A DNA stretch of 64,000 bases, taken from a virus. Lineage: Duplodnaviria > Caudoviricetes. The DNA lies in IMG/VR virus record IMGVR_UViG_3300016744_000001, one strand, 5' to 3'. Within the stretch, counting starts at the first letter, position 1. Each line of letters begins with the position of its first letter. Of the stretch, positions 22,430 to 33,317 are shown piece by piece. The notes under the pieces were generated by a model. It was not told where the DNA came from. It made no database searches and was given only the letters and a program-made list of their open reading frames with translations. Made by a program: the position numbers and the translations under genes.

Positions 22430-23242
22430 ATGGAAGACAAGTCTCAGGAACTCAATGTCCAGCTGATGGAGCACACGCACAATGCGGCGACACTGATCTA
22501 CTCGATCTGCAAGCAGTGCAACTCACCTGACGGCGCGGCTGATATTTTTTTCAATGAGCTTCGTAAAGATGCTTGCCACGAGATCTTTATGAAGAACGAG
22601 ATTGGTCTTGCACCCAATCAAAAGTCCCCGGCTGAGACCCGCAATGACCTGATCCGAAAGGTCATTGCTTCTGGTCATTCCAGTGTGGTGGAGCATGTTT
22701 CTTTTACCTTTGGGATCACTGGCTTCAGCCGCATTTCTTCTCAACAGGTGACCAGACACCGGATTGGGATGGCCGTCACACAGCAGTCTCAGCGGGAAAC
22801 CAACGCTGAGAACTTCACGTATGTCGTACCACCACACATCCTTGAACATGAAGACACCAGAACGATGTTCTTCGAAGAGATGCGACACGACCAGGAACGG
22901 TATTCCAAAATGCTGCATCTTCTTGAAGGACATGGTTACAAAAAGCAATCGTGTCAGGAAGATGCTCGCTTCTTGCTCAGCAATGCTTGTGAAACCAAGT
23001 TTGTTCTGACGTTCAATGCCAGGGCACTTCTTCACTTCATTGAACTCAGGAACTGCCGCAAAGCTCAGTGGGAAGTACGTGCACTGAGCAACAAGTTGCT
23101 TTCCTTGGTCAACCCTATTTTGCCGGCAGTGTTCGATACTGCTGGTGCCCCTTGTGAACGTTTTGGTTTCTGCACGGAGGATCGTTCTTGCGGTCGGTAT
23201 CCGTCCCTGAAAGACCTCACGTTCAGTCTTAAAGAAGGTTAA
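22430..23242 (+). CDS. thyX: FAD-dependent thymidylate synthase
   Basis: GHSSVVEH, RHR...SQR, EDARFLL, NARALLHFIELR, AQWEVR. Confidence 0.95.
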   Translation: MEDKSQELNVQLMEHTHNAATLIYSICKQCNSPDGAADIFFNELRKDACHEIFMKNEIGLAPNQKSPAETRNDLIRKVIASGHSSVVEHVSFTFGITGFSRISSQQVTRHRIGMAVTQQSQRETNAENFTYVVPPHILEHEDTRTMFFEEMRHDQERYSKMLHLLEGHGYKKQSCQEDARFLLSNACETKFVLTFNARALLHFIELRNCRKAQWEVRALSNKLLSLVNPILPAVFDTAGAPCERFGFCTEDRSCGRYPSLKDLTFSLKEG

Positions 23243-23247
23243 TCTAT

Positions 23248-23277
23248 CTACTGGAGCAGGCATGCCTGCTCCAGTAG
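23248..23277. terminator. 30-bp perfect palindrome between convergent genes
   Basis: ctactggagcaggcatgcctgctccagtag. Confidence 0.7.
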
Positions 23278-23285
23278 GGTTAATA

Positions 23286-25499
23286 TTATTCGGCTTCTGG
23301 TAAAACCAAACCATCTGGAAGCATGGTCAAAGCGTGGAGAGCATACCGAACACTGTTGGTGTTAGCAGTGTTGTAGAACTTACCAGCAGGGGAAATCATA
23401 CTTGCTGGTGATTCAAGATGTTTACGAGCTTCGGCCAATGCTTCTGATGACATAATCCCATTGACGCTAACCTTGTCACCATCAAAGTCGGCATTGAGAC
23501 CAGGTGTCTTTGATGGATGAACGATGGTGCTGTCAATGTATTGTCTGATGTTAATTCTTGGGTAATGTGGAAGGACCATATCCCCAAGTTCACTGTACTG
23601 AGATTTGAAGTTGACCACCCGGTCAGGTGATGTGGTGAGAACCGACACCTTACTAGGGTAGATGCTACCGACTTCGACTGCAGGGAAACGAGTGATCGTG
23701 CAGAACTTGTCATGGGTAGCCGCATACGTAGCAAGGTAGAGCATTTCGATTTTGGTCAATGCTCTGATTTTCTGTCGGTCAACGGTGACGTTACTTTCAA
23801 TCTGTGGAATGACTGATTCAGCCAACCATTCACAGTACAGTTCTTTTTTGTACTTTTCCTGATTGGTTTTGTCAATTGTCCGCAGATAGTCAGTTGTGAA
23901 GTCGCTCTTGATTGCCGCATCTTGAAGAGCTTTGATTTCACTTTCTGTTGCGATGTTTTCGTGCACTTCATGGGCAAGCTCATGTGCAATGAGATGCTCA
24001 AGATAGTAGTTGAAAGTCTCAAGTCCAGAAATCGTGGTCGCTCCAGTGTAGTAAGCAATGACGTCTTTGAGGTTTGGGTTCAGATAGACAATTTTGTTTT
24101 TTGTCCAACATCCACCAAATTTGATTGGATCAAAGTTCTCAGCAACATCACCGTTGTTGTCACGGGGCACCGACGACAACTCAAACTTGATGTCGGACAA
24201 GTCAATCCCAAGCTTTTTGTAGCTTTTGATGACTGTGTCCCAATGTGGTTGAATGTACGGTAATGTCAAGGTTGGACACTCAGCTAGCGGTATCTTTTTG
24301 GATGATCCACCAGCAGAGAGAAGCTTCTCAAAGTCATCAATGTTGCGAAGCAAGTAGATGTCTTTGCCAGTGTCATACACCGCCCACAGCCAGTACTTCT
24401 TTCCGTCGACCCCCATGATGTAAACTTCGTCATGACGGCCGTCAGTGTCCTTGAAGCTGTTGATCAGATCGTGTTTACTTTGGGTATCCAATGCATACGT
24501 CACTTGAGCTGGAACGATCTCAACGTACTTTGTTTTCAAAGTAGCCGGATCAATTGCTGGCACTTGAATACTCCCCAAGGTGTACACCTGTGAAGTGAAC
24601 AAGACATTGAGCGCATGGATGACGATTGGCTCAAAGGCTTTGGCTGCGTGGAACACTGAGAGCTGAGTCTCATTGTGCTTGATGTAGCTAGGTGATTCTG
24701 GAGAATCAGCCATCAGTGTTGGTGCGGTGATAACCCCACGAGTACCAAGGGCAAGGTTACGTTTGGCGTAATGCGCCTGACCGAAACCAGTCTTGCCTTC
24801 GTAGAAGTTCTTCCAGTGGTTAAAGATCTCAACCACTTTCAGTTGTACGTGGTACTTGACGTTGTTGAAGAATGTTCTCAAGATCGGGTTGTTCGCTCCA
24901 TTCTTGATCTCCAACGACATCATTAAGAGTGAGTTGTAAAGCTTGTTGACTTCATCAACTTCCACTCGACCTGAGACATCAGTCTTGACATCTCGCCAGC
25001 CAGCAGGACAAACTAACCAGTGTCGGATGACATGACAGTTCATCTGAATGGTTTGCTCGATGACTGAAATCTTGTTGTTTCTTGAAACTGAGTTGTTTCG
25101 TTGAAACTTGAGACTGGAAACATGCTCCATGAAGAAAGCATAACCAGTGCTCGCACTGGGGTTCTCTTTCTCAGCTGGAACAAAGCACCCGTTGGTTTGA
25201 TCCCAGGTAGCATGGACTTTGCTTTCCATGATGTCCTGATACCAACCACAGACGTTTATGATGTTGAGAAAAATCAATGGCGACAGAATGTCACTATGAA
25301 GTGAGATATACCCAAGACGGGATATCCGATCTGGTGTACCAATCTGACCAAAGATTGACTCACTGTACAATCCGAAGGGATGAAATGAACTGGTTGATGG
25401 CTCGTACATCAATGGTGAAGTGACTTCCCCAAGAAAATCTCTCTTGATGATTGAACCGACATCCATCGGCCAAACATTCCAAGGACGGTTTGGTTGCAT
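23286..25499 (-). CDS. virion RNA polymerase beta'-like catalytic subunit (phiKZ gp180-like) with inserted HExxH domain
   Basis: FHPFGLYSESIFG, GTRGVIT, TRFPA, catalytic LNADFDGD; SD GGAG before ATG at 25499. Confidence 0.9.
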   Translation of the reverse strand: MQPNRPWNVWPMDVGSIIKRDFLGEVTSPLMYEPSTSSFHPFGLYSESIFGQIGTPDRISRLGYISLHSDILSPLIFLNIINVCGWYQDIMESKVHATWDQTNGCFVPAEKENPSASTGYAFFMEHVSSLKFQRNNSVSRNNKISVIEQTIQMNCHVIRHWLVCPAGWRDVKTDVSGRVEVDEVNKLYNSLLMMSLEIKNGANNPILRTFFNNVKYHVQLKVVEIFNHWKNFYEGKTGFGQAHYAKRNLALGTRGVITAPTLMADSPESPSYIKHNETQLSVFHAAKAFEPIVIHALNVLFTSQVYTLGSIQVPAIDPATLKTKYVEIVPAQVTYALDTQSKHDLINSFKDTDGRHDEVYIMGVDGKKYWLWAVYDTGKDIYLLRNIDDFEKLLSAGGSSKKIPLAECPTLTLPYIQPHWDTVIKSYKKLGIDLSDIKFELSSVPRDNNGDVAENFDPIKFGGCWTKNKIVYLNPNLKDVIAYYTGATTISGLETFNYYLEHLIAHELAHEVHENIATESEIKALQDAAIKSDFTTDYLRTIDKTNQEKYKKELYCEWLAESVIPQIESNVTVDRQKIRALTKIEMLYLATYAATHDKFCTITRFPAVEVGSIYPSKVSVLTTSPDRVVNFKSQYSELGDMVLPHYPRINIRQYIDSTIVHPSKTPGLNADFDGDKVSVNGIMSSEALAEARKHLESPASMISPAGKFYNTANTNSVRYALHALTMLPDGLVLPEAE

Positions 25500-25529
25500 T
25501 TTAAACTCCATGTGCCTTTTGGAGGATAT

Positions 25530-26399
25530 ATGTCTCAAATACCTGCTTCATCTCCATTACGAAAACAAATTCTCACGGAAATTACGAACAAGTATTCAGC
25601 TGACGAAAGAGATGACTTCATCAAAGCATATCGGAGTGAGGCCACTCGTCAAATATCTTCGATATACATTGAATTGCCATACCTTTTGGATGTTTATCTT
25701 GGTGGTCTGCTTTGGATGACCAAGGATGATCCGAAGGCTTACCAGTACATCATCAGCAAACTGCCTAATTACAACAACCGGATTCAGGTAGAACATGCTC
25801 CGTATTTTAGTGAGCTGGGGATAACTGAAGAGCAACTGCTTGAACTGTTGAAAGATCCAAAACAAGCAGAGTTCCGAATGATGACTGCTCCACCAACAAC
25901 AATGTGGAAAGACTTGAAAGATATCCATCAGGGGATCGTCGCTGAAAACAAGATGCGAGAATCGCTGAACGTTTCTCCAGTGACAACACTCACGTATGTG
26001 ATCAACACTTATCCGTTGGTGTTGAGCGTTTCAGCTGCAAAGAAGTTGAAATCCAGACTGATTCTTGGTCTGAAAGAAACATCAATCAACTTCGGTGTGA
26101 TCAGTGTCCCTGGGCATGAGCTGGAGGAAAAACATTACAAAGAGTTTGACCACTGGTTCATCTACCATTTTTACAATTGGTCAGAGCACCCAGAATCTAA
26201 CGGGGCAAAGGCTTTGATGGACTTAAGGATGGCAAGAGCAGAATTGTTTGCACCACCAAGAGTCTCTGATCCAGAAGTGGTGAAGTTGTTACCAACATAC
26301 ACGTTGGATGACTACACCACATTAGAGAAAAATTCATTGGCGGCCCTGAATGCATTTACCTCTTTCCAGTATTATCGGTCAACGATTATCTTGTCGTGA
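25530..26399 (+). CDS. hypothetical protein
   Basis: SD GGAGG, ATG at 25530; 289 aa. Confidence 0.75.
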   Translation: MSQIPASSPLRKQILTEITNKYSADERDDFIKAYRSEATRQISSIYIELPYLLDVYLGGLLWMTKDDPKAYQYIISKLPNYNNRIQVEHAPYFSELGITEEQLLELLKDPKQAEFRMMTAPPTTMWKDLKDIHQGIVAENKMRESLNVSPVTTLTYVINTYPLVLSVSAAKKLKSRLILGLKETSINFGVISVPGHELEEKHYKEFDHWFIYHFYNWSEHPESNGAKALMDLRMARAELFAPPRVSDPEVVKLLPTYTLDDYTTLEKNSLAALNAFTSFQYYRSTIILS

Positions 26400-26431: not shown

Positions 26432-26504
26432 ATAAATATAGATTGTATTTATAGTGGTTAATCAGATGGACGGTTTTACCCACTAAGTTGGTTTGGAGTT
26501 CACA

Positions 26505-29500
26505 ATGGCAAAGAAAAACCTTGGGTCATTTAAAGGCCAAGATCGTACCACCAGTAACATGAATTTCGATTTTGATGATGCCGCCTCGGCATTTGATCGT
26601 TTTGATTTCAGCGATGGCGCGAACACCAATACGAAAAATAATCGCAACCCGATTAATGAAGTCCGTCAGGGTATTTCTTCTGCACTTGGATCAGCTCATG
26701 CCACATTTTTTCCAAGTCTGGGGAAACGCATTTCTCAAAGCGTTCCTGACGCAGCAAGATTCGTTGGAGAAGTTGGTGACTTTACCTCAGATCTGTCGTA
26801 TCTCAGCAATCAGTTGCAGCAAGATGTTGCTCCGATGGTGCAACAGCTTAAGCGAGCTGGCCGTACGCTTGGCCCAAGGGTTAAGCAGTTTCTACCAAAG
26901 TCGCTGCAAAACAGATACGACAAGTTGGTTTCAAGCAGTGATGAACAATCCCGCTCGAATGCCAAGCTCACAAAAGAAGACGCTGAAAAGCAAGCGATTG
27001 CAGCTTCTCTTGACGAAGTATTTAAGAAACAATTGCAGGCACAAGCCGATGCAGTTGTAGAACAGAAGACGGATAGTCTTGTTGATCGCGCTCTTTCTGC
27101 TAAGCAACATGGTGAATCATACAGCCAATTGCAAGCTATTCGTGCAGGGGCTGCTTTCCAACAAACATTTCTGCAAGCAATCCAGATCCCGTACATGAAA
27201 AAGGATCTGGAGATCAAGTACAAACATTACTTCGTTGCTAAGGATACCTTAGCAGTGGTGCAAGGTCTGTCAAAGATCGTTGAAAAGAAACTGGATGAAA
27301 TCAGACACAACACTGGTTTGCCGGATGTCCAGAAGCTCACTCGTTGGGAAGGTGTGAAAGAAGCCGGGCTGCAACGCTTTGGCAATGTAATCACCAACTG
27401 GCAAGTGAACATGCTGCGTAAGTTGCAGTCTCGTGTCCTCGATCCCTTTAAAGAAGGGTTGTCGATGGCCGGTGATGCTGCTGAGACCATGGGTGACACA
27501 CTGAGTACGATGGACGAAATGTCTGGTCGTACTCGAGGTGTTGGTGGTCAAAGTGGTAGCATACTTGGCATGATGATCGGCAACAAGCTGGCTAAGGGTG
27601 CTGGCAAGATGTTGTTCGGTGAGCAGTACGGCGCAAAAGGATTGTTGTCTAACAAGATGCTGTCCTTGAATAATCTGTTCAAAAATGCGAAGACAAGATT
27701 GGCACTCAAAGCCCAGCAGATGGCAGAAGACCGTGAAGGTAGTTTGCTGGGTGAAATGCTGTCAATCCTTGCTCCGGATATTCAACGTGGTGGTGGTCGT
27801 ACAACGAACACGATGTTGAAAGATCCGAATGCGCCAGGTACAATCACAAATGCATTTACTCTCTCAGTAACAACGATCATGCCTGGTTATCTGGCAAAGA
27901 TGGTTAAGCTGCTGGAAGAGATCAAAACGGGTAAGCCAGCTGAAGAATTGGTCTTTGACCATGATAGCAATGACTTTATCCGAGTATCAACACTGCAGAA
28001 GAAGTTTGCGTCAGAAGCTTTTGGTAGTACTTCAGATCGTCGTCGAAACATGGCAAAGGCGATTGGTACAATTCGTGGAACATACAAAGCTACGAGTGGT
28101 TCTGACCTGACGGATTTTGACAATGTTCAGGATGACCTGGCTCAATTCATTTCGAACTGTGCAATGTACAAGAAGCAGATTGAGCCATCAGTAATCAAGG
28201 AATTCGCTGGCATTTTCAAGCAGATCAAAACTGATCGTGCTGCAAGTGATGAAGATGTCAGTGATGACTACAGTAACTTTGAAGATGAACTTGCTTCAAT
28301 TGAAGCAGAAGAACGTGTTCTTCGGTACATGCGTGAGACGTTTAAGGGTGTTCAACATCCAGAAGCGTTGCTTGCATTGCTGGCGTCATTGCTGTTTGAT
28401 TCAAATGGCAATCTTGATCGCCAGGCATATTCTTCGATGGATGACGTCCTTGTTGAACAAATGAACAAGGATGAATATCTTGCCGTATTTGACAAGTATG
28501 TCTCAAAATACGGAAATGCTAGACATCTGAAACCATTCATTTCCTCGTCTGGCCGTCAGTTCACCTACAATGAAGCGGAGATTAAACGTCAGCTCTCGTC
28601 AGGTGTGTCGTTGGACGATAAGGACTTTGTGTCCGAACGTGACATGCACACTGATCGAGAAGCTGAGTTGCAGGCGGCACTTCGTCAGCAAATCAGTTTG
28701 AGTGACTTGCTGAAGGACCCGAATTTTGAAGGCGGCGCGGTTGGCAAGACAATGGCGTTTGCTCGTAAACATCTCGGGGAATATGGTCCGCAACTTAAAG
28801 ACATCTCTGCTCAGTGGAAAGCCGGTGTGAATGATGTTTGGCAGAATGACATTAAAGCCAATTTGCCAGATAACGTGAAACAGTGGTTTGTTGATCGAGC
28901 TGATCAATCACGTCAGACCATGCGTGGGATGCAGGATTCCTTCAGCAACGCTGGTGATGCTGCAGCACTGCAGCTTAAACTCAGACGGTTGAAAGAAACC
29001 AATCCCTATCTCGGTTCAGCAGAATCACGTCAGTTTGATCCATTCTGGAGTGAGCACGAACAAGATCAACCCTTTGCTGAAAATGGTGCGTTCTATCGTG
29101 GAGTACCACCTTACGTGATGGCAGCATTCATGAATGGACAAGGTGCCGCTACCCGGTTTAACTTGTCCGCTCCTTCTGATCAGCAAAAGGTTATTCCGGT
29201 TACACTGGAGAATGCAAAAGTTGTTGCTGAGCTGTTGTCTGATGCAATCGCCAAGTCGCACACAGTAGCACCTCAGCAATTTACAACACAAGTCCAAGGT
29301 GACGTCGTTGGTGCAGTCAATCAGTTTGAAGGAACATTTAAGGAATACGCTGAAAAACAATCAGCCATTCCAGAATTGCTCAATCGGCTGATCGATCTGA
29401 CTGGGGCGCTGTCAGGACAAATGGATTCAATTATCGGTAACACCACTAGCACTGTGCGAAAGGTGTTTCGTTGGACGAAAGATCATGCTAACTTCAAGTC

Positions 29501-32500
29501 GCTAGCTTCACTGGCTAAAAAGTCAGTAGCCGTACCTTGGGGTGCAACTAAACTTGCTGGCAGAATGGCTGGGGCAGCGATCCCTGGGGCATGGAATTGG
29601 ACTACTGGTACGGCTCTTCCGTACGCGCAACATCGACTTAAGCAAGGGATTGGGTTGCTTGGAACTGGCGCAAGAATCGCTGGTGGTTTGTCACTAGATG
29701 CTCTTGGTGCTGGTCTCACTGGATTGGGTTTGTCATCTGACGTCCTTGCAGGTAAATTAGCGACTGGGATGCAGTGGGCGAGAGATAAGAAAGATGGAAT
29801 CAAAACACTCTTTACGGGTGGTCTTTCTGATTTCAAAGCTGGCATGAAACGAAAGTGGCAAGATAAGGTTTACGTTGACGTTTACGTTAAAGATAAGGTT
29901 GATCCCGGAAATCCAATCCTGTCAAAACGACAGCAGGAAGATGGGGTTGTCTTTGTCAAGACGGGTAAACGTTTGCTGACTTCATATGCCTTGAATGCTC
30001 CAGTGATGGACCCAAATACTGAAGACATCTTGGTGACCGAACAGAACATCAAAGATGGTCTGGTCGACGTTCACAATCGTGATATCCTTGGGGCACGATC
30101 TGCATTTGGCAAAGCTCTTCAAGGGACAATGGGTCTTGCTGGAACACTCCTTAGAAAAGGAAAGAGCTTGGGCAAGACCATGCTCGGACTGTTGACTGGG
30201 AATATTCCATTTGCAGAACTGCTTGGGAAATCTGCGATGTTGGGTTTGGATGGTGTTCGAGCACTTGGCCGAGGGACTGGAAAGCTCTTTGGTAAAATGT
30301 TTGGATTGTCAGAAGGACTCAATAAGGAAGACCTCAAGAGCATTGTTGGTGATCGTCTTGACATCATCATCGAAATCTTGAGGAAACGTCAACCTGCTGG
30401 ACCTGAACCAAAACCCATTTCGTCCGGACCAAAGCCTGGTGACCGCGATGGTGATGGTAAATCTGATACGATCTTCCAATCAAGAAAACAGAAAGAAGAA
30501 GAAAAAGAAAAGAAGAATGAAGATACGGAGCGTCGTGGCTTCTATGACACAATGCGATCAATCAAAGATGGCATCGTGGGTAAGAAGGGCGAAAAGAAGG
30601 GGCTCATTGATACTCTCATGGGTGCCTTTGGTGCTGGTGGCATCTTCTCTTCCTTGGTTGGTGTAGCGAAAGGTATTTGGAGTGGTGTGTCCTTCATGGG
30701 CTCAGGTATCTTCAAGTTGCTTTCGTTCGTCGGTACGATTGGTCGTCTTCTCGGTCGGGGTATTCCTGGCATTGCAAAAGGTGCATTCTCACTTGGTGGG
30801 GGGCTCTTCCGTCAGTTCATGAAGATGGGCAAAGTTGGGAAACTGCTGACAGCTGGAGCTGGCTTGCTTGGTTTGTCACACCTTTTTGGTGGCAATGAAG
30901 CAGTTGCTGGTGAAACTGACTTGCCTGAAGATCATGACATTGATCAAGGTGGCAGCGGCGGATCAATGCTCGGTGGGATGGCTGGAGACCTTGCACAATA
31001 CGGAATGATGGCTGGTGGGCTTGGACTTGCTAAACGGTTTGGTGGCAAAGCCTTAGCTAAAATTGGTATTCGTGCCGGTGGTAAAATGGCCGCCCGTGGA
31101 GCGATCGCAGCAGCTGGTGCAGGTTCCGGTCCAGTTGGTTGGATTGTTGGCGGTGGATTGTTGGCTATTGATGCCATTGATACATTCGCTTTCGGTGGAA
31201 AATACAGTCAGAACCTCTACAATTGGATCGGCATTGGAACTGATGACTTTGCTGAATCTCGGTGTAAGCTTTACGGCGTCAACACTGATTTTAAAGTAAA
31301 GAACCTGATTGGTGATGGTGGTTTGCGACAAACGATCAAACTCGAAGATCGTATCTACGACATGCTCACCAAGAATGCCCCACCCTTGAATGACCGTGAT
31401 TATGAAGCATGGACTGATAAGTTCGGTCTTGACTCTTCTGATCCGGCTCAGGTAAAGTATTGGGTGACATGGTTCCGTCGTCGTTTCCTGCCAATCTGTA
31501 AGTGCTATCTTAAAGCACTGCAAGATGAGAAAGTTGGGTATAACGAAGTTGGTCAAGCCAGTGATGGCACGAAGAACAAAATCTTGCAGATCATGCAAGG
31601 TGAGTGCAGCGTTGTAATCCAGAATACCCAAGGCCTTGAACCGACACCTGAAGCATTTAAGAAGTTCAAGGAAAGTGAAGAGAAATGGAAATCTGACAAG
31701 TCCAATGAAGGGAGCAAAGCAAAAGCTGATGCTGCTCGTCAGGACAGAGATTCCAAGATCAAAACCGAGAAAGAATCCGGTGGTAGTGGCAAGTACGATC
31801 TGAGTGCTAGTGAAGCTGCTGCAGTTGGATCAACTAGCGGAGCAGGAGCTCTTGGTGAAGCACAAGCAGCAAAGAACAAAACTGAATATGCTTCTGTCCT
31901 TGCGGCGGCTGGTGGCAATGCTGGTGTTGCCAGAATGCTCGGTGGTGATGCTTTTAATGCTGGCAAGGGTAACGCCTTTACTGGTGGGATTATCCCCGGT
32001 GGAGCAGGTACGTATGCTGGTGGGAATAATGGTGCTGGTGGTCCTGCAGTCACAAGTGGTGGGGCCACTGGTAGTGTGGATATGACTGGGGTGAATCCGG
32101 CGAATATTACAGGGAAAGATGGTGAACTTGGTAGCTATGTTGCTAAGTTTGAATCTGGTAGTAAAGGTAGCGCCGCAATTTCATACGACCCACCTGGTGG
32201 CACCTCGTATGGTTCTTATCAGTTGTCATCACGAATGGGTTCATTGAGAGAGTTCGTTGAGTGGTGTAAAACTGAAGCTCCAGATGTTTACAAAGCTTTG
32301 ATGCCTCTGGTTGGTAAGGCGAACACCGGTAGCTCTAAAGGTGAGTTCCCGAACGCTTGGCTCCAACTGGTTAAAGATGGCAAGATTACTCATGACTTGG
32401 AACACAAGTTTTACGTGTCCAAGTTCTACAATAAAGCCATGGGGATATTGCAGAAGCAGTCTCCTGAAGTGGCTCAGTTTGTTCAAGGAAATCGTGCACT

Positions 32501-33317
32501 TCAAGAAGCTTTCTGGTCTTGTGCTATCCAGCATGGACCTGGTGGAGCAGTTCGGTTGTTCACGAACTATTGGAAGAAAGACATCACCCCAGAAGCGTTT
32601 GCTCGTGCTTTGTACGGTGAACGCTTTACAGAAAAGTACTTTCCAAGGTTGGCATCATCCGATCCTGGGATGCTCAGAAGCATCGCTAAGACTCGTGGCC
32701 CACAAGAACTTGGAGTTATTCTTGGGTTGATGAAACAAGGTGGTGGCCCAGCCGATCCTAACAGTGGTGGAGCAGCTCCGGCTGGTGCTACTCCAGATGC
32801 TGGTGGAGGTGGCGAAGCTGCCGGTGGTGGTGAAGGTGGAGGCAGTGCTCAGACTGTTACTCCTTCAGACGGTGGGACACCAGCCGGTGCTGATGCCGGT
32901 GGTGGGAGCACTGTGTCAGTTGCTGGCGCTGGTTCTCCTGCTGCAGTTGAAGCTGCTCCAGCTGGAGGTAGTGGGGGTGGAGAAGGTGGTGCAGCCGCTG
33001 CTCCTTCGCTCGCAACTTCCCATGGTGGAGCTGATGGTGGGGCACCTGCTGGTGCAGTTCCAGTCAGTACAACAACAGCTACTCCAGCGAATGGTCAATC
33101 AGGTAATACTGACTTGCTTGGGGTTCTGACAAAGATCCTTGAAGTAATCACGGCGTTGGCTAATTCTGGACAATCAATTCCGGATTTGTTGCAGCAACTG
33201 ATTGGTGTAAGTCAACAGTCAGTAGCAACAATGGCAGCTGCCGGTCAGGGTAATCAAAGCCCAACACCGTTCAGTGCAAACCTGGTTGGTACAAAAGTAA
33301 GACGGCAAACCGCTTAA
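26505..33317 (+). CDS. tape-measure/tail-tip protein with C-terminal lysozyme-like (VgrG3-C-like) peptidoglycan hydrolase (phiKZ gp181-like)
   Basis: 2270 aa, helical and G/A-rich; DVYVK...GLVD repeat unit; LGSYVAKFESG...GGTSYGSYQL...WSCAIQHGPG. Confidence 0.85.
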   Translation: MAKKNLGSFKGQDRTTSNMNFDFDDAASAFDRFDFSDGANTNTKNNRNPINEVRQGISSALGSAHATFFPSLGKRISQSVPDAARFVGEVGDFTSDLSYLSNQLQQDVAPMVQQLKRAGRTLGPRVKQFLPKSLQNRYDKLVSSSDEQSRSNAKLTKEDAEKQAIAASLDEVFKKQLQAQADAVVEQKTDSLVDRALSAKQHGESYSQLQAIRAGAAFQQTFLQAIQIPYMKKDLEIKYKHYFVAKDTLAVVQGLSKIVEKKLDEIRHNTGLPDVQKLTRWEGVKEAGLQRFGNVITNWQVNMLRKLQSRVLDPFKEGLSMAGDAAETMGDTLSTMDEMSGRTRGVGGQSGSILGMMIGNKLAKGAGKMLFGEQYGAKGLLSNKMLSLNNLFKNAKTRLALKAQQMAEDREGSLLGEMLSILAPDIQRGGGRTTNTMLKDPNAPGTITNAFTLSVTTIMPGYLAKMVKLLEEIKTGKPAEELVFDHDSNDFIRVSTLQKKFASEAFGSTSDRRRNMAKAIGTIRGTYKATSGSDLTDFDNVQDDLAQFISNCAMYKKQIEPSVIKEFAGIFKQIKTDRAASDEDVSDDYSNFEDELASIEAEERVLRYMRETFKGVQHPEALLALLASLLFDSNGNLDRQAYSSMDDVLVEQMNKDEYLAVFDKYVSKYGNARHLKPFISSSGRQFTYNEAEIKRQLSSGVSLDDKDFVSERDMHTDREAELQAALRQQISLSDLLKDPNFEGGAVGKTMAFARKHLGEYGPQLKDISAQWKAGVNDVWQNDIKANLPDNVKQWFVDRADQSRQTMRGMQDSFSNAGDAAALQLKLRRLKETNPYLGSAESRQFDPFWSEHEQDQPFAENGAFYRGVPPYVMAAFMNGQGAATRFNLSAPSDQQKVIPVTLENAKVVAELLSDAIAKSHTVAPQQFTTQVQGDVVGAVNQFEGTFKEYAEKQSAIPELLNRLIDLTGALSGQMDSIIGNTTSTVRKVFRWTKDHANFKSLASLAKKSVAVPWGATKLAGRMAGAAIPGAWNWTTGTALPYAQHRLKQGIGLLGTGARIAGGLSLDALGAGLTGLGLSSDVLAGKLATGMQWARDKKDGIKTLFTGGLSDFKAGMKRKWQDKVYVDVYVKDKVDPGNPILSKRQQEDGVVFVKTGKRLLTSYALNAPVMDPNTEDILVTEQNIKDGLVDVHNRDILGARSAFGKALQGTMGLAGTLLRKGKSLGKTMLGLLTGNIPFAELLGKSAMLGLDGVRALGRGTGKLFGKMFGLSEGLNKEDLKSIVGDRLDIIIEILRKRQPAGPEPKPISSGPKPGDRDGDGKSDTIFQSRKQKEEEKEKKNEDTERRGFYDTMRSIKDGIVGKKGEKKGLIDTLMGAFGAGGIFSSLVGVAKGIWSGVSFMGSGIFKLLSFVGTIGRLLGRGIPGIAKGAFSLGGGLFRQFMKMGKVGKLLTAGAGLLGLSHLFGGNEAVAGETDLPEDHDIDQGGSGGSMLGGMAGDLAQYGMMAGGLGLAKRFGGKALAKIGIRAGGKMAARGAIAAAGAGSGPVGWIVGGGLLAIDAIDTFAFGGKYSQNLYNWIGIGTDDFAESRCKLYGVNTDFKVKNLIGDGGLRQTIKLEDRIYDMLTKNAPPLNDRDYEAWTDKFGLDSSDPAQVKYWVTWFRRRFLPICKCYLKALQDEKVGYNEVGQASDGTKNKILQIMQGECSVVIQNTQGLEPTPEAFKKFKESEEKWKSDKSNEGSKAKADAARQDRDSKIKTEKESGGSGKYDLSASEAAAVGSTSGAGALGEAQAAKNKTEYASVLAAAGGNAGVARMLGGDAFNAGKGNAFTGGIIPGGAGTYAGGNNGAGGPAVTSGGATGSVDMTGVNPANITGKDGELGSYVAKFESGSKGSAAISYDPPGGTSYGSYQLSSRMGSLREFVEWCKTEAPDVYKALMPLVGKANTGSSKGEFPNAWLQLVKDGKITHDLEHKFYVSKFYNKAMGILQKQSPEVAQFVQGNRALQEAFWSCAIQHGPGGAVRLFTNYWKKDITPEAFARALYGERFTEKYFPRLASSDPGMLRSIAKTRGPQELGVILGLMKQGGGPADPNSGGAAPAGATPDAGGGGEAAGGGEGGGSAQTVTPSDGGTPAGADAGGGSTVSVAGAGSPAAVEAAPAGGSGGGEGGAAAAPSLATSHGGADGGAPAGAVPVSTTTATPANGQSGNTDLLGVLTKILEVITALANSGQSIPDLLQQLIGVSQQSVATMAAAGQGNQSPTPFSANLVGTKVRRQTA

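Follow-up and report, generated by a model that had tools for sequence, protein, structure and literature searches.

Introduction

The virion RNA polymerases (RNAPs) of N4-like phages always come with a zincin-like domain, for which autoprocessing or an attack on host proteins has been proposed (PMC5512222; PMC13434306). In the Bacillus jumbo phages AR9 and PBS1, an HD phosphohydrolase domain is fused to the virion RNAP subunit that represents the C-terminal fragment of beta (PMC7598289; PMC7824862). The virion polymerase of phiKZ is composed of Gp180, which has a DFDGD motif, together with Gp178, Gp80 and Gp149; a fusion of Gp180 to the 27-kDa mCherry is assembled, packaged and injected, with about ten polymerases per virion (PMC10612078). 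Here, a gp180-type gene is described in which a zincin-like domain is nested inside the polymerase subunit. It lies on a stretch of viral DNA of 64,000 nucleotides (IMG/VR record IMGVR_UViG_3300016744_000001), called the window in the following, the source of which is an uncultured giant phage related to phiKZ. A first-pass annotation, made from the sequence alone, had already pointed to a metalloprotease-like domain in the catalytic subunit of the virion RNAP.

The polymerase gene and its insertion

The gene starts with an ATG at 25499 within an open reading frame (ORF) that spans 23286–25538 on the minus strand, and it encodes 737 amino acids (aa) followed by a stop codon (Table 1). Its product matches the PHROG family phrog_2986, "RNA polymerase beta subunit", in two stretches (E = 3.5e-117). 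A tblastn search of cultured phage genomes gave 313 jumbo-phage matches at 27–31% identity, each in two pieces, which together span 1.53–1.61 kb among the 40 matches listed. Both flanks of the insertion discussed below match gp275 of phage 201phi2-1 by BLASTP (32% identity, E = 3e-53 and 2e-12), a protein whose annotation records its detection in virions by mass spectrometry and its similarity to phiKZ gp180. The full-length AlphaFold model (predicted local distance difference test score, pLDDT, 77) matches the AR9 beta'-N chain (7s00_d, Z 18.7) as well as bacterial beta' over residues ~19–500. Because these lines of evidence and a conserved neighbouring gene agree, the gene is assigned, on sequence and model, to the virion RNAP beta'-N subunits of the phiKZ gp180 and 201phi2-1 gp275 type, and its product is presumably packaged in the window phage too. 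This agrees with the earlier identification of the 737-aa protein, with its NADFDGD motif, as the catalytic virion RNAP subunit.

Residues 392–572 of this subunit are a true and precise insertion, absent from close and distant orthologues. The boundaries are set by an insert-less metagenomic relative (P0002, on L001) of 564 aa, whose flanks are ~93% identical in protein and 82% in DNA. Its junction reads FEKLIG-DNVEVDRQ, and the window gene has 519 extra nucleotides (173 aa) there. In the alignment with gp275, query residues 23–394 correspond to subject residues 23–386 and query residues 573–728 to subject residues 386–546, so that the two flanks abut at residue 386. The insert of about 175 aa first placed at 23790–24315 (residues 396–570) is refined accordingly, and the flanks proved to be contiguous in phiKZ-like orthologues, as first stated: the segment is absent from orthologues and is not part of the RNAP fold. 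The insert has a GC content of 0.43, versus 0.46 in the flanks. It is joined to them by linkers at residues 398–400 and 568–570, where the pLDDT of the full-length model falls below 50.

Two kinds of intervening element were considered and rejected. An intron is contradicted by the absence of any Rfam match or intron-like RNA in 22800–26000. The intein termini already reported as missing are indeed not there: the junctions read ...FEKLL/SAGGSS and ...IESN/VTVD, without His-Asn and with Val as the next residue, and the modelled fold is that of a zincin, not a Hint domain. Real inteins in relatives (P0015 and P0017) occupy a different place, the DFDGD motif. No endonuclease or Hint domain was found in the insert, and no repeats were seen at its ends. 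Among 50,697 phage genomes, the window gene had no megablast match, and the insert alone gave nothing by tblastn at E ≤ 0.01.

Fold and motifs of the inserted domain

Five homologous beta' inserts (P0001, P0003, P0007, P0009 and P0010), which are 29–50% identical to the window insert, were aligned. H506, E507, H510, E553, C556 and E557 are invariant in all five. The motif HELAH, which had been located at about 23967–23984, holds both histidines and the glutamate of HExxH. For motif and length counts, 171 members of the wider family were collected, 56 of which form the alignment A3. HExxH is intact in 164 of the 171, including all six beta' inserts; this retention, together with the invariance of its H, E and H and of E553 and E557 in the five aligned inserts, means that it is not a chance motif. 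The other strings quoted in the first-pass annotation are likewise present (GGCWT at residue 462, KELYCEW at 552–558 and NADFDGD at 669–675).

Downstream of HExxH follows the family motif F-[TS]-x-Y (F in 157 members, T or S in 166, Y in 163), whose Tyr is a candidate transition-state residue. It is followed by ExxxE, in which E553 is kept in 163 members and E557 in 161; E553 is also invariant in A3. KELYCEWLAE had been singled out as the site of a possible third ligand, and a Glu does lie there, on the helix after HExxH. The ExxxD motif of thermolysin and neprilysin offers an analogy, by which E553 would be a candidate for the third zinc ligand and E557 one for the residue that orients the His. 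Position 556 is occupied by Cys in 89 members and by Ala in 70. Since Ala can replace it so often, Cys556 is not a metal ligand.

The insert was modelled with AlphaFold 2 from the small alignment of five inserts (pLDDT 84, predicted template modelling score 0.83). In the numbering of the model, its elements are a helix at 22–38, strands at 47–50, 73–76 and 79–82, and helices at 101–125 and 156–172. This is the classic order of a zincin: an N-terminal helix, three strands, a long HExxH helix and a final helix, here with ExxxE. A VIA structure search of 48,161 PDB representatives found 40 chains at Z ≥ 5, the best at Z 7.0. Nearly all of the 50 matches listed, with a top range of Z 5–7, are zincins or zincin-fold domains; among them are lethal factor, Certhrax, BepA, selecase, abylysin, aminopeptidase N, neprilysin, SprT, Wss1, PprI, YbeY and PPEP. 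In the ESM Atlas, a search by shape returned TM scores of 0.44–0.56, and the named rows were all metallopeptidase families (M48, Zn_peptidase, DUF2201_N and Mx1 clusters). The matches in BFVD include phage proteins named "Lethal factor", M48, SprT-like, IrrE, MuF, ADP-ribosyltransferase and "large polyvalent protein", as well as several phage proteins of 1000–1350 aa of the polyvalent type. Searches with the insert by ESM Atlas features gave no usable match, and PDB sequence and profile searches gave chance-level matches only (SUMO, TetR, lipoprotein).

The near-uniform zincin matches and the motifs carry the assignment of the fold class, no single match being decisive. The model thus places the domain in the zincin fold, gluzincin type (MEROPS clan MA), with the HExxH helix and the later Glu helix that a zincin-like fold, as first suggested, would show; structural scores are modest throughout. 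An SprT- or Wss1-type assignment was rejected, as there is no conserved His after HExxH: H513 occurs only in P0001, and the other four inserts have Y, L, W and Y. Only 2 of the 56 members of A3 matched the SprT-like Pfam model (E = 0.04), and the structural scores for proteins of this type (Z 6.1 for 6mdx, 5.7 for 5xbn) are tied with those of other zincins.

The family at large

A profile search of 1.84 billion cluster representatives recovered 165 clusters at E ≤ 1e-3, 139 of them at E ≤ 1e-10. By length, the 171 members divide into 86 of up to 200 aa that begin with Met, 48 of 201–400 aa and 37 longer ones. The 86 short members are regarded as free-standing because of their size and their initial Met. 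Judged by its sequences, the family has the signature G..GG..NP..HExxH..F[TS]xY..ExxCE and is absent from Pfam, PHROGs and NCBIfam, PHROGs having been searched with ten free-standing members and NCBIfam with seven. When the 56 members of A3 were compared with Pfam-A by hmmscan (E ≤ 0.1), scattered HExxH families appeared below threshold, with M48 and YgjP-like at E = 0.006–0.03 in a few members. A pattern scan of IMG/VR with the five-sequence alignment yielded 138 pattern matches and no confirmed member.

Outside the RNAP, the fusion partners of the family are enzymes that modify proteins or hydrolyse phosphate compounds: GNAT acetyltransferase (repeatedly), SET, HD, InPase together with HD, transglutaminase-like and HAD domains. 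GNAT and InPase are among the domain types described for polyvalent proteins (PMC5512222). The free-standing members mostly came from contigs that are short or lack annotation. One of them, P0180 (L012:6825-8222), lies among small genes, with a Lar-like restriction-alleviation gene a few genes downstream. A longer 58-kb contig with P0180 also has a Tad2-like gene, a weak hint of an early or anti-defence neighbourhood.

Association with virion RNAP subunits

The family has joined the virion RNAP repeatedly, as judged from the protein sequences: inside beta', at the C-terminus of beta' and inside the gp178-type beta subunit. It forms an internal insert in six gp180-type clusters (P0001, P0003, P0007, P0009, P0010 and P0023). 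P0169, a gp180-type protein without an internal insert, carries the zincin as a C-terminal fusion. In P0035, P0087, P0092 and P0145, it lies inside a PHROG 3148 protein, at profile position ~775. PHROG 3148 is the phiKZ gp178-type "virion-associated" beta subunit, whose gene adjoins the gp180 type in phage KTN4. The insertion in the gp178-type beta of P0087 (847-1690) and P0092 is ~850 aa long and holds the zincin, a transglutaminase-like domain (DUF553) and other sequence; P0092 starts with an HAD-like fragment.

The site in beta' is a hot spot. P0002, P0004, P0014 and P0015 have no insert, and the other proteins carry either the zincin or unrelated segments. Inserts called type B (P0005:392-603, P0006:392-604) and type C (P0008:392-573) had no match in Pfam, PDB sequences or the Atlas. 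Type D inserts (P0011:392-696, P0012:392-705, P0013:392-546, P0016:390-533) match the putative nucleotidyltransferase TM1012 (PDB 2fcl, 4hx0) over G-S...D-x-D (here D-I-D) at E = 8e-4 to ~1e-3, and DUF6036 weakly. In P0011 and P0012, the type D insert includes ~150 further residues without assignment.

In a tree of the N-terminal flank, the insert types are interleaved, and within two sister pairs, P0001/P0002 and P0003/P0004, the presence of the zincin is the only difference. The approximately unbiased (AU) test does not reject one common origin for the six beta' inserts (p = 0.87), the constrained tree having beaten the quick unconstrained one. P0001/P0003 and P0007/P0023 pair in the flank tree and in the domain tree alike; resolution of the unconstrained domain tree is poor. 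The simplest history would be a single early capture with later losses and replacements, and recombination between related phages would fit equally well.

Polymerase genes of this clade are also interrupted at the catalytic motif. On L013 (9058-13106), the beta' gene ends in ...NADFDGN/C, followed by ~27 more residues and a stop; the GNAT-zincin gene P0081 begins 4 nt on in another frame. A 701-aa ORF comes next, with faint intein and LAGLIDADG matches, in which the beta' profile is taken up again at residues 485–596. The arrangement resembles an RNAP gene interrupted by an intein, possibly a split one, with a zincin gene placed in the gap. The ORFs of P0012 (L003:8001-11075), P0009, P0013 and P0023 stop inside the catalytic motif (...GLNAE, ...GLTA). 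On L003, the gene after P0012 has a weak HNH_3 match, a pattern suggestive of an active site interrupted by an intron or a homing endonuclease. The inteins of P0015 and P0017 contain LAGLIDADG domains.

Selection and position in the polymerase

Among three close variants of the P0003 lineage (L002, L017 and L018), the ratio of non-synonymous to synonymous substitution rates (dN/dS) is 0.065–0.16 in the insert versus 0.01–0.025 in the N-terminal flank. These ratios come from small counts, 3–4 non-synonymous versus 5–14 synonymous codon changes. They indicate that the insert is under purifying selection, less tight than that on the polymerase core.

The N-terminal flank holds the motif GKxG...KR...R.VI (residues ~235–258) and most of the alpha+beta insert of the beta' double-psi barrel that is specific to virion RNAPs. 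On the C-terminal side, residues 659–724 match beta'/gamma chains by phmmer, the flank aligns with E. coli beta' 446–516 by hhalign (probability 92%), and the NADFDGD motif lies at 23475–23495. In our own reading of the motifs, residues ~235–258 and TITRFPAVE, which would equal LLNRAPTLH, correspond to motifs of E. coli beta'. An hhalign comparison of the RNAP family with E. coli beta' aligned only the catalytic region. Since the insert lies between these two beta' motifs, it would fall in the dock region of bacterial beta', just upstream of the Mg-binding NADFDGD; this mapping combines the motif reading with the description in PMC7824862. In the model, residues ~282–397 and 578–595 form the alpha+beta domain, with the zincin nested inside through the two linkers.

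Possible functions of the domain

The insert would be an autonomous gluzincin domain of ~170 aa, with a flexible linker at each end, placed within the alpha+beta insert on the surface of the beta' barrel. Because the subunit belongs to the packaged polymerase, the domain would be loaded into the capsid and would enter the cell with the DNA, ahead of phage gene expression. It would then most likely act as a pre-made peptidase. Possible targets are host proteins or co-injected phage proteins, as proposed for the zincins of the N4 virion RNAP and the polyvalent proteins. Candidate substrates that were considered, namely host proteins of transcription or defence and, as for SprT and Wss1, roadblocks bound to DNA, found no support in the evidence. 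We judge it on balance probable, by a modest measure, that the insert is a catalytically competent zinc peptidase packaged and injected with the polymerase; a co-injected protease had also been proposed in the first-pass annotation. This is favoured because the catalytic signature is kept, selection is purifying, the fusion partners are enzymes and the family has been attached repeatedly to two packaged subunits; the mCherry-Gp180 fusion and the N4 case provide precedents. The most evident property shared by the two carrier subunits is their membership of the packaged enzyme.

Several observations weigh against this reading. The structural scores are all below Z 8, and a Foldseek search of the PDB with the insert model gave nothing at E ≤ 1e-3, its weak rows including many zincins. 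The nearest relative, P0002, does without the domain. P0145 (HAxxR) and P0169 (RExxR) have lost zinc ligands and retain the domain, so catalysis appears dispensable in at least some RNAP contexts. Finally, the modelled site is near the RNA-exit side, which leaves room for a role in transcription.

These points lead to an unlikely alternative, a non-catalytic accessory module at the dock or RNA-exit side that binds a partner protein, DNA or nascent RNA, or helps packaging, with HExxH kept for a metal-dependent structure or binding. The persistence of the ligand-dead copies in the RNAP fusions P0145 and P0169 is in its favour, as is the specific tie of the family to RNAP subunits in several architectures. 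The structural matches include zincin folds with roles other than proteolysis (YbeY and the lethal factor and Certhrax N-domains), and in N4 encapsidation depends on the region with the zincin, while the protein enters the virion without being processed (PMC5512222). However, the general-base Glu and both His are kept in nearly the whole family, including the six beta' inserts, which is typical of active enzymes. The domain can do without RNAP, since half of the family is free-standing and other members have unrelated enzymes as fusion partners. Its three different sites (internal in beta', at the beta' C-terminus and internal in beta) are also hard to square with one fixed structural role.

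Somewhat less likely again is a maturation protease acting in cis, which would cut its own subunit or other internal head proteins at packaging or ejection, and not host proteins. Autoprocessing is favoured for the zincins of polyvalent proteins such as P1 DdrB (PMC5512222), and the flexible linkers on both sides could be cleavage sites. Cleavage of either linker, however, would leave the catalytic barrel of beta' in two separate chains. Sister phages without the insert assemble anyway, and phiKZ-like phages own a dedicated head protease (KTN4_215, "putative head protease", adjoins the virion RNAP genes). No evidence of processing was found.

It is improbable that the domain just rides along as a selfish or neutral element, mobile and non-splicing, which a permissive loop tolerates and from which the phage gains nothing: this reading would suit the patchy distribution (P0001/P0002 and P0003/P0004 differing only by the insert, types B, C and D at the same site) and the inteins and HNH-associated interruption that RNAP genes of this clade also gather, but not the dN/dS of 0.07–0.16, the motifs kept across inserts 29–50% identical, the lack of endonuclease or Hint domains, junction repeats and intron-like RNA, or the unrejected single origin of the six beta' inserts (AU p = 0.87) with P0001/P0003 and P0007/P0023 paired in both trees. 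Of the "mobile non-splicing domain" proposed in the first-pass annotation, the patchy distribution is therefore real, while mobility itself is weakened by purifying selection and the missing mobility signature.

A wider reading may be added tentatively, and we hold it to be doubtful as a whole. In a clade of uncultured phiKZ-like phages, the virion RNAP would double as a delivery vehicle, in which the beta' loop, the site in gp178-type beta and the beta' C-terminus are exchangeable cargo sites for pre-made enzymes that are injected and act before phage gene expression. The cargo would comprise the zincin, the nucleotidyltransferase-like and transglutaminase-like domains and at least two folds without a match. 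In effect, this would be the strategy of polyvalent proteins built into a multisubunit polymerase.

Neighbouring genes

The features of the locus are collected in Table 1. The conserved neighbour of the gp180-type gene is represented in the window by a divergent gene; its syntenic counterparts in relatives encode 2270–2434 aa and carry PF21277 (T6SS_VgrG3-like_C). In 201phi2-1, gp276, annotated as a cell-puncturing device, adjoins gp275. The gp178-type gene of the window has no zincin insert, the P0145 flanks matching residues 64–891 and 901–1558 of its reading frame contiguously. In the close variants of the P0003 phage, the RNAP gene has a ThyX (Thy1) gene on its downstream side. On L002 and L018 this gene forms one ORF of 266 aa, and on L017 (3256-4055) it is called as two ORFs (119 and 147 aa), a split that reflects a frameshift or an assembly error.

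Table 1. Features of the gp180-type locus in the window; residue numbers refer to the 737-aa protein
Feature	Position	Strand	Evidence
Virion RNAP beta'-N gene	23286..25499	-	ORF and translation, phrog_2986, tblastn, gp275 annotation, AR9 fold match
N-terminal RNAP flank, residues 1-391	24327..25499	-	82% nucleotide and ~93% amino-acid identity to insert-less L001/P0002
Inserted zincin-like (gluzincin-type) domain, residues 392-572	23784..24326	-	Missing from P0002, P0004, P0014, P0015 and gp275; AlphaFold 2 model
HELAH (HExxH motif), residues 506-510	23970..23984	-	On predicted helix 493-516
FTTDY (family F-[TS]-x-Y motif), residues 534-538	23886..23900	-	Family counts
ELYCE (ExxxE), residues 553-557	23829..23843	-	Last helix, 547-563, in model
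C-terminal RNAP flank, residues 573-737	23289..23783	-	phmmer, hhalign, catalytic NADFDGD
Divergent 2274-aa gene in the position of the large gp180 neighbour	26493..33317	+	Synteny in L001, L002, L017 and L018
gp178-type virion RNAP beta subunit, 1546 aa	35446..40086	+	Local phmmer with P0145 flanks

Significance and comparison with known systems

Early in a jumbo-phage infection, in the minutes before the protective shell exists, the phage is at its most exposed, and only the contents of the capsid can act. If the proposed function is true, phages of the nucleus-forming type would possess, in a protease that is part of their injected polymerase, a new kind of early weapon or processing device, and the unexplained HExxH domain of the N4 virion polymerase would have a convergent counterpart. 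Independently of its function, the gp180-type loop tolerates domains of 150–310 aa and may be used for tagging or cargo delivery, as with mCherry-Gp180 (PMC10612078), and the analysis defines an uncatalogued zincin family of ~165 clusters.

Among peptidases of known structure, some of the best structural matches come from MEROPS family M34 (the catalytic domain of anthrax lethal factor, PPEP-2, PPEP-3) and from the N-terminal zincin-like domains of lethal factor and Certhrax (4fxq_A, Z 7.0; 1yqy_A, 6.7; 6psn_L, 6.3; 6fpc and 9g0j, 5.6–5.8). M34 peptidases have the layout HExxH, then Tyr, then Glu. However, no M34 model matches at the sequence level, the identity in the structural alignments is 7–12%, and the Z scores are tied with those of many zincin families. 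The minigluzincins (selecase, abylysin, jannalysin) and M48/BepA have compact catalytic domains of ~100–110 residues with a similar size and topology (4qhf, Z 6.6; 4jiu, 6.5; 6sar, 6.7), but F-T-x-Y, ExxCE and the ~30-residue spacer before HExxH are specific to the insert family.

The HD domain of AR9 and PBS1 is, like the insert, an enzymatic domain unrelated to transcription on a virion RNAP subunit of jumbo phages. It belongs to another enzyme class, is a terminal fusion and is fixed in its lineage, whereas the insert is nested and swapped at a hot spot.

The zincin domain found on the N4 virion RNAP and on polyvalent proteins comes closest as a precedent. There, too, a fold with HExxH and a downstream Glu is carried by an injected RNAP or by multidomain proteins, and similar proposals, autoprocessing or an attack on host proteins, would apply by analogy. 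Polyvalent proteins share the GNAT and InPase partners with the present family, and a class like the nucleotidyltransferase-like type D insert is also listed for them. As in the polyvalent metallopeptidases, the domain occurs in multidomain proteins together with effector-type enzymes, and by analogy with phiKZ and 201phi2-1 it would be delivered by the virion. In sequence, the kinship is remote: hhalign against the N4 C1 region gave a probability of 14%, and no Pfam model of the polyvalent metallopeptidases was among the 25 models listed by hmmscan for the 56 members, one flank giving a weak LPD22 match. The carriers also differ. The N4 enzyme is a single-subunit RNAP with the domain strung along a giant polypeptide, whereas here the RNAP is a multisubunit beta/beta' enzyme and the domain is nested in an insert of the catalytic barrel. 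No description of a metallopeptidase in a multisubunit phage virion RNAP was found in the literature. Zincins on injected phage proteins are thus known, and what is new is the family, its carrier and the nested architecture at a hot spot.

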